From the sequence record MT932213.1: a stretch of 64,000 nucleotides of DNA. One strand, written 5' to 3'. The DNA is from Escherichia phage VEc74. The position numbers were made by a program, and so were the translations under genes. Position 1 is the stretch's first letter; every line of letters begins with the position of its first letter. The notes under the pieces are model-generated. The model did no database searches. It was not told where the DNA came from and saw only the letters and a program-made list of their open reading frames with translations. Positions 38,228-58,352 of the stretch are shown in pieces.

Positions 38228-39088
38228 TTATACCGCCATCTTTCCTTTAATTGGCGGGTGAGATACATAGTTGTTAAGAACGAAATCTTTAGGTCTAAGT
38301 TTAAGAACATATTTTAATTGTTCTTTAGTAGAAAGATATCGGAATTTATAAGGTAGACCACTTATTACCAGCTCACAAAGCTCTTTAGGTTCACGCCTCA
38401 AAATTTCTTTACACTGTTCTACGTGATTCATATAGATATGAGTATTACCACCAGAAAATATCAAATCTCCTGGAATAAGATTACACATCTTAGCTACAAT
38501 ATGAACTAACGTAGCATATGATGCAATATTAAATGGAAGACCGAGAAAAACATCTACCGAACGTTGATACCACTGCAAATCCAAATAGCCATTACGCACA
38601 TTAAACTGATAGAACATATGACAAGGCGGTAATGCCATATATTTAAGTTCAGCTGGATTCCATGCTGAAACAATTTGACGCCTATCATTTGGCAGTTTTT
38701 TAATACGATCAACAACTTCTATAATTTGGTCTACACCACCAAAATCACGCCACTGTTTTCCATAAATTGGACCAAGTTCACCGCTATGATACCCTAAATC
38801 TTTTGCCTGATTTTCGTAATTTTCATCCCAAACTGTTTTGCCTTGGATTAACGAATCGTGTTGAATTAATCGTAAATCATTGACATTTGTGCTTCCCGAT
38901 AAAAACCATATTAGCTCAGCGATGCAAGCTTTCCAAGCGAGTTTCTTAGTCGTTACTGCAGGAAAACCTTTAGTTAAATCCCAGCGTAATTTAGTACCGA
39001 ACAAAGCAATTGTTCCTGTGCCTGTTCGGTCATCGGTTTCATAGCCATTTTCAAAAATGTCTTTAATTAAATCTTGGTATTGTTTCAT
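38228..39088 (-). CDS. td: Thymidylate synthase, uninterrupted (no group I intron)
   Basis: 286-aa continuous ORF, T4 Td length; active-site region LPPCHMFYQF. Confidence 0.95.
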   Translation of the reverse strand: MKQYQDLIKDIFENGYETDDRTGTGTIALFGTKLRWDLTKGFPAVTTKKLAWKACIAELIWFLSGSTNVNDLRLIQHDSLIQGKTVWDENYENQAKDLGYHSGELGPIYGKQWRDFGGVDQIIEVVDRIKKLPNDRRQIVSAWNPAELKYMALPPCHMFYQFNVRNGYLDLQWYQRSVDVFLGLPFNIASYATLVHIVAKMCNLIPGDLIFSGGNTHIYMNHVEQCKEILRREPKELCELVISGLPYKFRYLSTKEQLKYVLKLRPKDFVLNNYVSHPPIKGKMAV

Positions 39089-39133: not shown

Positions 39134-39493
39134 TCAATACGGTTTAGCATCAAATTTTCTTTCGATTTCAGGAGTGAAATATAATTCTTTACCGCGTTTA
39201 GAAAAGCGACCAATAATATGATAATTATTCTCATCAAACGTAATATTGCCAATATCCATGGCTTTCAACCAAATATCGATATTTCTATCCAGTTTTATAT
39301 CAAAATTCCAATACGGAGAACTATTACCGAAAATACTGCAAGCGGATTCAGTGAAACAACTACTATAAATCTTGTCTTTAGGAACTACTAATTGATAGAC
39401 GCCTTTAATAAACTGAGGACCCTGCCATTTAGGTTGTTTCGCGTCTTTTTCTAATAGAATAGGGTAATAATTAAAATTCATATTTTCCGCCAC
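39134..39493 (-). CDS. Hypothetical protein inserted between frd and td (ATG start at 39481 gives 115 aa; track start at 39493 is GTG)
   Basis: ORF MNFNYYPILLEKDAKQPKWQGPQFIKGVYQLVVPKDKIYSSCFTESACSIFG...; no recognisable motif. Confidence 0.5.
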   Translation of the reverse strand: MAENMNFNYYPILLEKDAKQPKWQGPQFIKGVYQLVVPKDKIYSSCFTESACSIFGNSSPYWNFDIKLDRNIDIWLKAMDIGNITFDENNYHIIGRFSKRGKELYFTPEIERKFDAKPY

Positions 39494-39501
39494 GTGTTAT
39501 T

Positions 39502-40328
<827 letters not shown>

Positions 40329-40338
40329 ATTATTTTCC

Positions 40339-40581
40339 TTAAACAGACTTTTTCACAATTTTCCAATCAGCTTTAAACTGCTCGACGTCAGAATGGTAAA
40401 TCCAGAATCCTGCGCTTTCTCCGTCTTCATAAAGAGGACATCCATCACATTCATCTTCCCACCCCATGTCACGTAAAAGATGTTCAGCTTTTTCAACAAG
40501 TTCAGAATCTTTACCGATGATATTAAAATACCATTTACCTCTAACTTCCGAATCTTTGATGCTATGGCGTTGTAATCTCAT
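40339..40581 (-). CDS. Hypothetical protein (frd.2 position)
   Basis: 80-aa ORF with early promoter upstream. Confidence 0.5.
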   Translation of the reverse strand: MRLQRHSIKDSEVRGKWYFNIIGKDSELVEKAEHLLRDMGWEDECDGCPLYEDGESAGFWIYHSDVEQFKADWKIVKKSV

Positions 40582-40607
40582 TTTATTCTCCTCAAGTTGA
40601 TAAGGCT

Positions 40608-40637
40608 ATAGTATCATTACAATAGCCTGTTGTAAAC
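40608..40637 (-). promoter_or_regulatory. Early promoter (-35 GTTTAC, 18-bp spacer, -10 TACTAT)
   Basis: Read on minus strand. Confidence 0.55.
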
Positions 40638-40639
40638 AT

Positions 40640-40867
40640 TTATTTTTGAATTAAGCCCATATAAAATTTAGCATCTTCAGGATACATGCCATCACAATAC
40701 TCATTGGTCATAAAACTGATAAGGTCTTCAAGAGGACCTTGGACTTCAATTTGAATACTAAAGAATTGGGTATCTTTAATGTAAGCCATACTCAAAGAAG
40801 GATAACGATTGCGGATAACTTCATAAGTGTATTCAAAATCAACAATATCAATATTAACCTTAGCCAT
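40640..40867 (-). CDS. Small acidic protein, paralog of the 41336-41566 ORF
   Basis: 75-aa ORF from [26 protein letters not shown]...; RBS GAGGAAAATAAA; track ORF is longer but its start lies upstream of the promoter. Confidence 0.55.
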
Positions 40868-40896
40868 TTTATTTTCCTCATGTAGTTGATAGGGTA

Positions 40897-40926
40897 ATAG
40901 TATCACACTATTACCATGATGTAAAC
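40897..40926 (-). promoter_or_regulatory. Early promoter (-35 GTTTAC, 18-bp spacer, -10 TACTAT)
   Basis: Read on minus strand. Confidence 0.55.
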
Positions 40927-41291
40927 TACTTTTTGAAAGTTTTTCGCAAAAGTTCAATGATTTCATCTACATTGTTTTCGTCTACAATGCAGTGAATTTT
41001 TGTTACGCCAGAAACTGTGTCTTCGGCTCCATCTTCTTCAGAAGTCGGTTCTTTATACTCGCGAAAACAATGAAATTCGTCTTCACAAACGTTAAAGTAA
41101 AAATGCTTTCCATTTGCGCATTCAATGTGTTTTATTACTCTAAATCCATCAACAAAGAAAGCTTCTTTAACTTCAAACCATCCACCATTTTCTTGAATAA
41201 TTTTAACTATTGATGAATTAGAACGTGGGCGATAATTAATAAATGTATCAATAAGTCTTGGAACAAGCTCATACTTTTTGCCAATATACAT
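40926..41291 (-). CDS. Hypothetical protein
   Basis: 121-aa ORF with RBS GAGGAAAAC. Confidence 0.5.
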
Positions 41292-41335
41292 TACGTTTTC
41301 CTCATTTTAACGGGGCTGTAATAGCCCCTTGATAA

Positions 41336-41566
41336 TTATTGTTCAATCAATCCCATGTAAAATTCTGCGTCTTCAGAATCCATACCATCACAATATTCAT
41401 TAGCCATAAAGCGGGTGAGGTCTTCAAGAGGACCTTCAATGACAATAGAAAAATTGCAATAATTGGGATCATCGTGAATACTTGTGATACTAAGTTCAGG
41501 ATAACGATTACGAATAATCTCTTCAATATATTCAAAATCAACGATGTCAATATCAACTTTAGCCAT
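41336..41566 (-). CDS. Small acidic protein, paralog of the 40640-40867 ORF
   Basis: 76-aa ORF from [26 protein letters not shown]...; RBS AGAGGAAAATAAT. Confidence 0.55.
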
Positions 41567-41609
41567 ATTATTTTCCTCTTTAATCATCAGCAGTATTGCC
41601 GATAGTTGT

Positions 41610-41639
41610 ATAGTACCACAGCATGCTTTGGTTGTAAAC
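41610..41639 (-). promoter_or_regulatory. Early promoter (-35 GTTTAC, 18-bp spacer, -10 TACTAT) within a repeated cassette
   Basis: 72-bp cassette 41601-41672 is near-identical to 58283-58354. Confidence 0.6.
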
Positions 41640-41670
41640 CGTTTTGTGAAAAAATTTTTGAAATAAAAAA

Positions 41671-41689
41671 GGGGACCTCTAGGGTCCCC
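41671..41689 (-). terminator. Rho-independent terminator after gene 32 (ggggacctctagggtcccc plus T-run)
   Basis: Perfect 8-bp stem followed by TTTTTTATTT on minus strand. Confidence 0.8.
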
Positions 41690-41711
41690 AATTAATTAGT
41701 AATATAATCTA

Positions 41712-42620
41712 TTAAAGGTCATTCAAAAGGTCATCCAGGTCCGTGTCATCAGCACTAGATGAACTGCCAGAGCTTGAGCTCATAAAATCATCTTCAGTTT
41801 TTGTTTTGAAGTCATCAACATTGAATGCATCCAAATCATCAGCAACTTTATCAGCTTTCTTAGCGGCAGTTGCTGCGGCACCACCCATAGCAGCAGTTCC
41901 CATAACTTGACTGAACTTAGTGCTCAGTTCTTCAAACGATTTGAATTTATCTTTAGAAGTCATTTCAGAAAGGTCAACCATTTGTTCGAACAGTTCTTTC
42001 TGGAAAGATTCATCATCAATGTTTGGAATCGCAGATTGATTCAGGAATTTAGATTCATCGTAGTTACTAAAACCAGAAACTTGTTTAACTTTCAGTACAA
42101 AGTTAGCACCTTCCCACGGACAAGTTACATCAACTGGAGTTTCACCCATTTCAACATCAACCGCAATCATTGCATTGATTTTATCCCAGATTTTCTTACC
42201 GAAACGGTATTTAAATACTTTACCTTCGTTTTCTGGAGCAGCTGGGTCTTTTACAACAAGAATATTAGCCCAGTAAGAAGTTTTACGTTTAACAAGACTG
42301 TACTCTTTATTGTCAGTGTTGTACAGATCATTTTTACTAATGTATTGACATACTGGGCAAGAATCGTAATCACCGTGGGTAGATGAACAATTTTCGATAT
42401 ACCATTTACCGTTTTTCTTGAAACCGTGATTTACAAGAATTGCGAATGGTGCTTGTTCATCATTTTTAGACGGAAGAAAACGAATTACTGCTTGACCGTT
42501 ACCCGCATTGTCGAGTTTCAGTTTCCACTCGCCTTTATCTTCAGAAGAAAAACCACCTTTATTTCCAGCCAGTTTAGCCATTTGTGCAGCGAGTTCAGCA
42601 GTAGATTTACGTTTAAACAT
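41712..42620 (-). CDS. 32: Single-stranded DNA-binding protein gp32
   Basis: 302-aa ORF; [50 protein letters not shown] and acidic Ser/Asp-rich C-terminus match T4 gp32. Confidence 0.95.
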
Positions 42621-42703
42621 TTTTATTTCCTTTTTAATTTAATTAACAGTTGGTGCTATGACGATGTATGACCTCATAGCTGGTCAGTGAGATAATTATA
42701 ATC
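42621..42703 (-). promoter_or_regulatory. Gene 32 translational operator: pseudoknot plus unstructured A/U-rich tract in the 5' leader
   Basis: Minus strand reads ...UGACCAGCUAUGAGGUCAUACAUCGUCAUAGCAC... then UUAAUUAAAUUAAAAAGGAAAUAAAAAUG, matching the T4 autoregulatory leader as I recall it. Confidence 0.65.
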
Positions 42704-42711
42704 TATTTATA
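42704..42711 (-). promoter_or_regulatory. Late promoter TATAAATA (minus strand) for gene 32
   Basis: Reverse complement of plus-strand tatttata, directly downstream of gene 59 stop. Confidence 0.6.
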
Positions 42712-42719
42712 ATAAGCAA

Positions 42720-43373
42720 TTAATACTTGCAAGATTTCACAGTTTCAATGAAAACATTTTTAGCTTTCTGTGAATCAATATTTAAAATTTTTCTATAAGC
42801 CTTTAACTTTATAGAATAATTATTCCAGACTAAATTATCAGTCTGTTCATCATGTTTATCAATTATATTTAAAAATGAATCAAGCAAGATAAACGTCTCA
42901 AACGAAATTATGTTCGATTGCAGAAGTTTAAAAATATAACTTGATTGAACTTTTGGATTATACTCAAAAATTTCTTTAAAAGCAGAAACTTCAACTTTTT
43001 TACTAAAATAATAAATGTTGCGAATATCTTCTTCAAACTTAAATTTAATTTGCTTTAAGCGTCCGATATATTCACGATAAAACACAAGTGCATCAGCGTC
43101 AGAGATGTCACCAATCCAAGCATCTTGGTTAGCAACAAGATTGCTTATAAAGATTAAAGCAAGTTCCTTTAATTTATATTTTTCTGATAACTTCTGGAAA
43201 AAATACTTATCCCTTCGCTTTTGATAAGCGGCATCAGACACCCGCATGCACCAATTATACTTAATTACATCATACTTTCCATTCATATGTTGTTTTATCA
43301 TTAAGTATAATTTATAAACTGATTTACCATCAATGTATCTTTCACCACCAGCAGGCATGCGGAGTTTAATCAT
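42720..43373 (-). CDS. 59: Helicase loader gp59
   Basis: 217-aa ORF, T4 gp59 length and position. Confidence 0.8.
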   Translation of the reverse strand: MIKLRMPAGGERYIDGKSVYKLYLMIKQHMNGKYDVIKYNWCMRVSDAAYQKRRDKYFFQKLSEKYKLKELALIFISNLVANQDAWIGDISDADALVFYREYIGRLKQIKFKFEEDIRNIYYFSKKVEVSAFKEIFEYNPKVQSSYIFKLLQSNIISFETFILLDSFLNIIDKHDEQTDNLVWNNYSIKLKAYRKILNIDSQKAKNVFIETVKSCKY

Positions 43374-57614: not shown

Positions 57615-58250
57615 TCACAGTTCAGATGCTACAGCGATTACTACTTCAATGTTTTCTGCCGAGCGTTTAATGTCAAGATACACATTACCGTTTTTAGCGA
57701 TTTTACATGACATTCCGATGTCAGTAAATTTCTGAATATGATGTTCCATCATTTTGTATCCAAAAATTCGCATATTTCCATTGTTGTTAATTTCAAAATT
57801 ACGAATTCCGTGAGTGCGTTTTTCTAAAATAGCAAGATAGTTACTGCGATAAGTTTCAACCTTTTTAAGAACAAATCCATTTTCATCTAAAAGTTTTAAC
57901 ATGAGGTCTTTATCTTCTTCCATATCGGAAGTAATCTCGCGAGCTTTACGAGTTGCTCGTTTTTTCAGCAGTTCCGGAGCATTTTCCTGTGCATATAAAG
58001 TTGCTGCATTTGAAATAATATCCTGAGCTTCGCCAGTAATGATTAATCCATCACCAGATTTCTCCACCAGGCCTTTTTTAATCAATACCCCAATATTACT
58101 ATTAACTACTGCGTTACCTAAATCTGGATGCACCTCACGAACTTCTGCAGCTGTAATGAAATCTTTCTTAGCAATAGTAATTAAAATCGCAGCAGTTTTT
58201 TCATTCAGAACATCGTTAGAAGCTTTGATGATGTAAGTTACTTTAGACAT
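57615..58250 (-). CDS. motA: Middle transcription activator MotA
   Basis: 211-aa ORF; MSKVTYIIKASNDVLNEKTAAILITIAKKDFITAAEVREVHPDLGNAVVNSNIGVLIKKGLVEKSGDGLIITGEAQ matches T4 MotA. Confidence 0.92.
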   Translation of the reverse strand: MSKVTYIIKASNDVLNEKTAAILITIAKKDFITAAEVREVHPDLGNAVVNSNIGVLIKKGLVEKSGDGLIITGEAQDIISNAATLYAQENAPELLKKRATRKAREITSDMEEDKDLMLKLLDENGFVLKKVETYRSNYLAILEKRTHGIRNFEINNNGNMRIFGYKMMEHHIQKFTDIGMSCKIAKNGNVYLDIKRSAENIEVVIAVASEL

Positions 58251-58291
58251 TTTCTAATCTCCGTAATTCTGTATCAGTAGTTGATAGTTGT

Positions 58292-58321
58292 ATAGTACCA
58301 CAGTATGCTTTGGTTGTAAAC
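58292..58321 (-). promoter_or_regulatory. Early promoter (-35 GTTTAC, 18-bp spacer, -10 TACTAT) for motA, within repeated cassette
   Basis: 72-bp cassette 58283-58354 near-identical to 41601-41672. Confidence 0.6.
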
Positions 58322-58352
58322 CGTTTTGTGAAAAAATTTTTGAAATAAAAAA

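Follow-up and report, generated by a model that had tools for sequence, protein, structure and literature searches.

The closest described relative of the genes considered here is frd.3 of phage T4, whose product (NP_049853, Pfam family PF05798) bears the label 'uncharacterized 8.8 kDa protein in frd-Gp32 intergenic region', and for which full-text literature searches found no functional study. T4 carries a single frd.3, in the order 32 / frd.3 / frd.2 / frd.1 / frd, and the neighbouring Frd.2 is predicted to adopt an LSm-like fold (PMC12152347). The second system to be compared is a process, namely PeSL shuffling (PMC2839356; PMC4122927). In this process an ORF is bracketed by two cassettes, each made of an early promoter and a stem-loop, and an insertion consists of one ORF plus one cassette placed among variable small ORFs, with the crossover lying between the -10 element and the Shine-Dalgarno (SD) site, as in the sequenced mini-circles. 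The promoters follow the T4-group early-promoter consensus TTTACW-N17-TAYWAT (PMC4122927), and in the original description the terminator stands upstream of the promoter. In the locus studied here, what looks like a diverging duplicate of frd.3 is probably a pair of genus-specific alleles, joined by horizontal transfer through a promoter cassette and stacked at this shared regulatory element.

The window under analysis is the whole stretch of 64,000 nucleotides from Escherichia phage VEc74 (MT932213.1), to which all coordinates refer, and the genes of interest lie on its minus strand. Read along that strand, gene 59 (42720-43373) and gene 32 (41712-42620) are followed by a first frd.3 copy, called here frd.3-B (41336-41566, 76 codons plus stop), then by frd.2 (40926-41291, 121 aa; Pfam PF03197 FRD2, 111.5 bits), by a second copy, frd.3-A (40640-40867, 75 codons plus stop), by frd.1 (40339-40581, 80 aa; DUF5417, Pfam PF17438, 114.2 bits), by an 81-aa ORF (40083-40328) and by frd (39502-40083), after which come a 119-aa ORF and then td. 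The original prediction had drawn attention to two ORFs at the coordinates of frd.3-A and frd.3-B, leaving their strand unstated, and had described them as separated by an unrelated 121-aa gene; both ORFs are present, in the same orientation and 470 bp apart, and the intervening gene is frd.2. RB27, PP01, AR1 and similar phages match a 22-kb stretch of the window at about 95% identity, no record being identical to it, and T2/RB-type phages share 95-100% identity with its gene 32, gene 59, frd.1 and frd, so to judge by these identities the window phage is a Tequatrovirus of the T4/T2/RB type. Since its frd.1 shows 97.5% amino acid identity to that of T2 and 71% to that of VR7, frd.1 belongs to the resident background.

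The two products are small acidic proteins, as had been predicted, with 75 aa and a pI of 4.27 for A, and 76 aa and a pI of 4.05 for B. Their homology, previously described as paralogy at roughly 60% identity, holds well: BLASTP aligns them from end to end with 48 identities in 76 positions (63%), 76% positives and one gap (E 2e-34), far beyond chance. Both belong to PF05798 (Phage_FRD3), whose curated gathering threshold is 28.1 bits, with 129.6 bits for B (E 6.3e-38) and 123.4 bits for A (E 5.3e-36), residues 1-76 of B and 1-75 of A covering model positions 1-75 of 75. With T4 Frd.3 they share length, predicted fold and conserved motifs, EDxxFY among them. A tblastn search of the 64-kb window gave no third copy.

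The early promoters and strong ribosome binding sites that had been assigned to both copies are also borne out, the promoters as consensus matches: TTTACA-N17-TACTAT, with TG before the -10 element, stands ahead of B (41610-41638, minus) and of A (40897-40925, minus), and a GAGG SD motif lies 8-10 nt before the ATG of each. A third promoter with the same TTTACA-N17-TACTAT form, at 40608-40636 (minus), precedes frd.1 and is likewise followed by a GAGG SD motif, so that frd.3-A is bracketed by two putative early promoters. Such sites are far from random in the window, where TTTACW-N17-TAYWAT occurs 10 times against 0.44 expected (a 23-fold enrichment), nine of the 10 sites being on the minus strand and three within this 1-kb stretch. 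The gene between the two copies, frd.2, lacks a promoter of its own and has a hairpin (GGGGCTATTACAGCCCC) and an SD site; it should thus be read from the frd.3-B promoter, and on this arrangement it is evidently co-transcribed with frd.3-B.

The two copies differ sharply in their nearest relatives. At least 129 phage records, among them RB51, RB68 and ime09, encode a Frd.3 with 100% identity to the B protein, and frd.3-B agrees with T4 frd.3 in its position and in its terminator-promoter leader; by these signs frd.3-B is the resident Tequatrovirus allele in the usual slot, directly after the gene 32 terminator. T4, however, has one copy, whereas the additional copy of the window is of the allele class of another genus and sits in the slot of that genus. 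The best phage match of A is Frd.3 of VR7 (Gaprivervirus) with 90.7% amino acid identity, followed by those of Dhakavirus (JS98, IME08 and others) with 85-88%, whereas Tequatrovirus alleles reach 61-69% and Mosigvirus alleles 50-53%. In the phage collection, with its roughly 730 FRD3-bearing records, no Tequatrovirus record holds a close match to A, and the two-copy haplotype is therefore known only from metagenome or other genome assemblies.

The positions of the two copies tell the same distinction. We mapped the window proteins onto 27 related loci and found the order 32 / frd.3 / frd.2 / [optional ORF254c-like gene] / frd.1 in Tequatrovirus, and 32 / frd.2 / ORF254c / frd.3 / frd.1 in Dhakavirus and Gaprivervirus. 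In the window both genus-specific slots are occupied, A being in the Dhakavirus/Gaprivervirus slot just upstream of frd.1. A tblastn survey detected FRD3 in 731 phage records, in two places in three of them and as a single copy in the remaining 728, and all 12 FRD3 loci in IMG/VR are single-copy as well. The original prediction had named single-copy, conserved core genes as the case that would speak against it: single copy is indeed the rule, but neither sequence nor position is uniform. One of the three two-place records, Tequatrovirus Jbel, has the usual copy adjoining gene 32 and a second copy of Mosigvirus type in the e-tRNA region, with early-promoter cassettes on its flanks and 50% identity to both A and B, while Mosigvirus moskry has its sole frd.3 in the e-tRNA region, beside tRNA genes. 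With three alternative slots across genera, FRD3 behaves as a mobile, promoter-flanked early-gene cassette. The family itself is narrow, for among 1.84 billion representative proteins an HMM search returned only eight matches, five of which are genuine FRD3 proteins (three full-length and two truncated); as far as these searches reach, it is confined to T-even-like phages of Enterobacterales. Three repeat proteins among the matches were rejected, P0019 and P0020 having no credible pairwise match, and P0023 after inspection of its sequence, in which only a repeated motif resembles the C-terminal helix of FRD3.

To locate the foreign segment, we compared the window with T2, T4, EH2 and VR7. The T2 locus has frd.2, one promoter cassette and then frd.1. 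Relative to it the window carries an inserted segment of about 288 bp (about 40595-40882, minus), comprising an SD site, frd.3-A and one promoter/stem-loop cassette of VR7 type, and the break in the frd.1 promoter cassette is a clean one, between its -10 element and its SD site. The left cassette, which drives frd.3-A (40883-40925, minus), consists of the promoter, a stem-loop and a presumed crossover zone, and it is chimeric. Its T2/T4-like part starts at the end of frd.2 and takes in the -35 element, the spacer, the -10 element and TACCCTATCAACTA, and agreement with the T2, T4 and EH2 cassette runs from the -35 element to CCTATCAACTA; with CATGAGGAAAATAAAATG begins a stretch identical to the frd.3 leader of VR7, which would place the crossover in CCTATCAACTA at 40883-40893. 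Past the stop codon of A, the right cassette, which drives frd.1 (40603-40636, minus; promoter 40608-40636, stem-loop 40603-40628), is again of VR7 type (TAAATGTTTACAACAGG...TACTATAGCCTTATCAACT) up to the frd.1 ATG, and the frd.1 coding sequence is of the resident type.

The same site holds different contents in related phages: the cassette upstream of frd.1 is empty in T2, is filled by a 22-codon ORF in T4, by an ORF254c-like gene in EH2 and by frd.3-A in the window, and the breakpoints of presence and absence fall between the -10 element and the SD site or the ATG. In EH2 and others the ORF254c-like gene lies just upstream of the frd.1 cassette. From this variety of contents, the frd.1-upstream cassette is evidently a hot spot for other insertions too. 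The 22-codon ORF of T4 encodes a hydrophobic product and is unannotated.

This pattern is the one described for PeSL shuffling. As in that process, the window has an ORF bracketed by two early-promoter/stem-loop cassettes that fit the consensus, the insertion amounts to one ORF and one cassette among variable small ORFs, and the crossover maps between the -10 element and the SD site as in sequenced mini-circles, the mini-circle being putative here. There are two differences. The first concerns the stem-loops, since the terminator stands upstream of the promoter in the original description, whereas the inner stem-loops of the window overlap the -10 element. The left stem-loop, of 10 bp at 40893-40915, lies over the -10 element (fold -14.4 kcal/mol, z -2.4), and taken together the stems of the two cassettes around A have 7-10 bp with z of -1.5 and -2.4, overlap the spacer and the -10 element, and have no T-run. 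The cassette upstream of frd.3-B (41610-41689, minus) is of the classic kind, with the gene 32 terminator hairpin (41671-41689) and a T-run upstream of the promoter, and over about 75 nt it is near-identical to the cassette upstream of motA (about 58270-58350). The second difference is that the cargo in the window is a homologue of a gene already there, thus creating direct repeats that are able to recombine and so to delete frd.2.

From these junctions we infer that the insertion was PeSL-mediated: recombination inside the repeated PeSL cassette upstream of frd.1 would have brought in a Gaprivervirus/Dhakavirus-type allele, either through integration of a PeSL mini-circle or through a double crossover in a mixed infection. 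Such an event would have added one gene and one cassette, as a result of which A, B and frd.1 would each keep a sigma-70 early promoter of their own, and the two frd.3 direct repeats could then recombine again. The donor appears to be unsampled, the nearest match being only about 90% identical (dS 0.41), and the direction and the date of the transfer are accordingly what we infer from the comparison. The case thus seems to be a known process, cassette shuffling, acting on a known family, a new instance and no new kind of system. It also completes, at a single site, a series of natural states of PeSL-type shuffling, with the empty site of T2, the alternative fillings of T4 and EH2, the homologue insertion of the window and a product of its resolution, which is described below.

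The arrangement is not peculiar to one assembly. An index of public assemblies lists the exact A protein in 37 blocks, and the two-copy order with the same junctions was found in all eight of the eight places listed, in independent assemblies from ENA, Logan and NCBI that include contigs of 166 and 168 kb. The backgrounds vary, with segG present or absent and the td intron present or absent, and across the surrounding 3.3 kb these contigs diverge by 3-6% in DNA, while A, by whose exact protein sequence they were retrieved, differs by 0.4-1.3% (1-4 of 225 nt). Their B alleles form four mosaics, made of three hairpin modules and two C-terminal modules. One further contig from Logan, L026, has the order 32 / hybrid frd.3 / frd.1 and has lost frd.2; its hybrid gene is of B type (the T2 allele) from the 5' end to nucleotide about 155 and of A type after a shared TTTATG. 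Such a structure is the product that should be expected of unequal recombination between the two frd.3 direct repeats. A and B have no exact match longer than 19 nt in common, which is too short for an assembly jump at k=31 and speaks against a k-mer artefact in this contig. The loss of frd.2 is compatible with the normal plating of T4 frd.2 amber mutants (PMC12152347); in CRISPRi-ART frd.2 was scored weakly "Fit" (PMC11879866). On the strength of these contigs, the two-copy arrangement evidently recurs in nature and can be resolved by recombination.

Recurrence and resolution also bear on whether the second copy does anything for the phage, and it is a real, if minority, possibility that it is a neutral and transient by-product of recombination in mixed infection, an intermediate of allele replacement without any added function. 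The two-copy state is rare among isolates, a product of its recombinational resolution exists in L026, and frd.3 of T4 is without measurable effect on fitness in the laboratory, its knock-down by CRISPRi-ART giving a score of -0.49 (p 0.86) and the class "Not Fit" on the laboratory host (PMC11879866 supplement). Yet the A ORF is intact and is furnished with promoter and SD site in at least nine contigs from varied samples and backgrounds, which suggests, weakly in view of the retrieval by exact protein sequence, that it persists and spreads.

The origin of the pair can be judged from Nei-Gojobori estimates of dS and dN/dS. Between A and B dS is 1.33, with dN/dS 0.17. Between the window and VR7, gene 32 and frd.1 both give a dS of 1.60 and frd and td are saturated, while frd.3-A gives only 0.41, with dN/dS 0.11. 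The A-B value is close to the between-genus value of 1.6, so the split of A from B is as old as the genera; the A-VR7 value is far below the 1.6 of the flanking genes, so A was transferred horizontally, long after the genus split. The latter comparison is what makes it improbable that an ancestor had two slots, of which Tequatroviruses usually lost the second and Dhakavirus and Gaprivervirus the first, the window having kept both by vertical descent. That the window slots are exactly the two genus-specific positions, and that the A-B divergence is old, would both agree with such an ancestry. However, vertical descent leaves unexplained why the synonymous difference between A and VR7 is at least 4-fold below those of frd.1, gene 32, frd and td, why A is near-invariant (1-4 of 225 nt) over backgrounds 3-6% apart, why the haplotype is rare, and why resident and VR7-type sequence are joined in the left cassette.

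Horizontal transfer is also to be preferred to the view implied by the words 'duplicated' and 'diverging' in the original prediction, namely that frd.3 was duplicated in situ in this phage lineage and the copies then diverged under diversifying selection, which we regard as very unlikely. It draws on the presence of two homologues 470 bp apart, in the same orientation and with similar promoters, and on the dN/dS of the hairpin, which reaches 1.9-3.5 in comparisons of some B alleles. Copies from a recent tandem duplication would be closest to each other, whereas A is nearer to VR7 (90.7% amino acid identity, dS 0.41) than to B (63%, dS 1.33, about the between-genus level); in addition, A lies in the slot used by Dhakavirus and Gaprivervirus, between chimeric cassettes with a leader and a downstream cassette of VR7 type, the whole-gene dN/dS is 0.17, and 728 of the 731 phage records are single-copy. 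As for divergence, overall dN/dS ranges from 0.05 to 0.36, which denotes purifying selection. The ratio is 0-0.25 outside the hairpin; for the hairpin itself the Dhakavirus/Gaprivervirus lineage gives 0.03-0.11 and the Tequatrovirus alleles give 0.3-3.5. The hairpin values above 1 were not accepted as diversifying selection, since with 1.5-2.5 synonymous differences behind them they do not reach significance, and recombination between alleles makes simple pairwise tests of the hairpin invalid. A polymorphism test on the A copies (4 synonymous to 1 non-synonymous, P 0.005) was likewise set aside as a sign of selection, the contigs having been picked by exact protein identity. Finally, that reads of a Tequatrovirus and of a Dhakavirus/Gaprivervirus phage were merged in assembly, as the foreign nature of the A segment might suggest, can practically be dismissed, for the architecture and junctions are identical in the eight independent assemblies, the junctions lie in short shared motifs and not in long repeats, and Tequatrovirus flanks are found on both sides.

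Regarding the protein itself, the AF2 models of B and A (pLDDT 92 and 94) have identical topology, and Frd.3 is predicted to be a compact, acidic single domain of 8.9 kDa with the order beta1 / alpha1 / beta2 / hairpin / beta3 / alpha2 / alpha3. Over 43 distinct sequences the N-terminal third (beta1-alpha1) has a column entropy of 0.45, against 1.33 at the tip of the beta2-beta3 hairpin and 0.64-0.75 in the C-terminal helices. The invariant residues include D7, D10, E12, Y13, E16, G44, F52, E56, Y57, C58, G60, E64, D65 and Y69, and no catalytic motif was recognized in Frd.3. Sequence and profile searches of the PDB with Frd.3 gave nothing below E 1, and a Foldseek search of the PDB with the AF2 model gave only generic alpha/beta sandwiches (best E 0.17). 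The nearest of them, ACT/ferredoxin-like domains, share with Frd.3 the beta-alpha-beta-beta-alpha order and a three-stranded sheet packed by helices, but Frd.3 lacks the fourth strand and has a C-terminal helix instead; homology was not accepted, at a query-normalised TM-score of at most 0.57, 3-21% identity and that same best E. In BFVD, Foldseek recovered other FRD3 proteins at TM-scores of 0.81-0.93 and otherwise uncharacterised proteins. PADLOC gave no match for Frd.3 and NCBIfam nothing significant, and a RelB-like match in Pfam (E 0.058) was set aside as below threshold.

Two functional labels found in the databases were also disregarded. The name 'ssDNA-binding protein' on some frd.3 records is probably an artefact of PHROG phrog_1764, a profile of 391 columns, of which the first 294 correspond to gp32 and the last 75 to Frd.3, and the 'putative peptidase inhibitor' of phage ESCO10 comes from a record in which td and frd are both named 'thioredoxin'.

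Phages such as T4 and T7 are known to make small acidic early proteins, Arn and Ocr respectively, that bind DNA-binding or defence proteins of the host. By analogy, Frd.3 may be likened to them in its small size, its low pI (4.0-4.3), its early expression and its dispensability on a laboratory host; in the searches above it resembled no characterised protein in sequence or fold. Inhibitors that track variable host targets, as the original prediction had it, are a candidate role, the points in its favour being that variability is concentrated in a single beta-hairpin and that the Tequatrovirus alleles are mosaics of hairpin and C-terminal modules. We propose, tentatively, that Frd.3 is an early, non-enzymatic, stoichiometric binder of a macromolecule of the host, or possibly of the phage, and that its hairpin tunes the specificity. 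We consider this proposal and the neutral-intermediate explanation given above comparably plausible. If Frd.3 is such a binder, a genome that encodes two different hairpins could cover a wider range. A more speculative version, to which we give a rather low probability, takes Frd.3 as a modular specificity protein, in which the acidic core would bind a conserved class of targets in Enterobacterales, the hairpin, exchanged among alleles through intragenic recombination, would pick the variant, and alleles of different genera would be stacked by recombination at promoter cassettes to broaden the coverage of hosts or defences. If this version were true, the window and Jbel would represent two independent stackings, the one of a resident allele with the Dhakavirus/Gaprivervirus type and the other of a resident allele with the Mosigvirus type. 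The frd.3 alleles with their modular hairpin are tractable candidates for tests of host range or anti-defence activity. The frd.3 mRNA is among the abundant NAD-capped transcripts of T4 (bioRxiv 10.1101/2024.04.04.588121).

The 84-aa ORF254c-like gene (2327-2578 in locus L001, 2182-2433 in L003, and present in further related loci) appears to be another cassette swapped between genera at the frd.3 locus. Its protein is 92-100% identical between Tequatrovirus and Dhakavirus/Gaprivervirus loci, against only 62-65% for the gene 32 proteins of those same loci, and between EH2 and the Gaprivervirus VR7 its dS is 0.91 vs 1.6 for the flanking genes. The frd.3 gene itself is found as a hybrid of the resident allele, frd.3-B, and the imported one, frd.3-A, in a natural Tequatrovirus contig (Logan SRR29999948 contig 7620, 3587-3835). 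This contig is also without frd.2; among the functionally uncharacterised genes of T4, frd.2 alone received the score 'Fit' in a CRISPRi-ART study (PMC11879866).

The promoter cassette that carries frd.3-A in the window is followed in T4 by an unannotated 22-codon ORF on the minus strand (NC_000866, 3506-3643 of the T4 locus, equal to T4 146005-146142), which is also present at this cassette in two IMG/VR loci (L014 and L015). The ORF has its own Shine-Dalgarno site, and its product, MFAPYIMAAVMLVCLYLLIKAC, is strongly hydrophobic. As for frd.3-B, the terminator, T-run and early promoter lying 5' of it (window 41600-41690, minus strand) are matched by a cassette 5' of motA (cassette 58270-58350, minus strand; motA 57615-58250), with one mismatch across about 75 nt and the terminator stems as the sole further difference. 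The two cassettes are direct repeats spaced 16.7 kb apart, an arrangement through which recombination could take place.

Some gene callers report an 83-aa form of frd.3-B that starts from an in-frame upstream ATG (window 41567-41587). Since this ATG falls within the Shine-Dalgarno region, and the resulting N-terminal extension is absent from frd.3-A and many other alleles, the start giving 76 aa is likely the true one.

Regarding the FRD3 family more widely, three records of the phage collection have two FRD3 places, and in the one that was located, Jbel (PP942088.1), the second copy lies at 66571-66798. The profile search also matched an unrelated 454-aa repeat protein of the representative library, in which the motif GM(N/Q/T)(A/S)EDA(R/K)YYAGL occurs four times; the likeness of this motif to the FRD3 C-terminal helix (E 7.8e-4) is probably a coincidence. 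Several GenBank and RefSeq records call frd.3 'single strand DNA binding protein', and the probable source of these labels is the PHROG profile phrog_1764, a fusion of 391 columns which matches gp32 at 1-294 and Frd.3 at 317-391.

The gene content of the window differs from that of T4 at 38228-39088, 39134-39493 and 42621-42719: unlike in T4, td (286 aa) is intron-less and lacks I-TevI, an additional ORF of 119 aa (phrog_1928) separates td from frd, one of 81 aa (phrog_3183) separates frd from frd.1, and segG is missing between genes 32 and 59.
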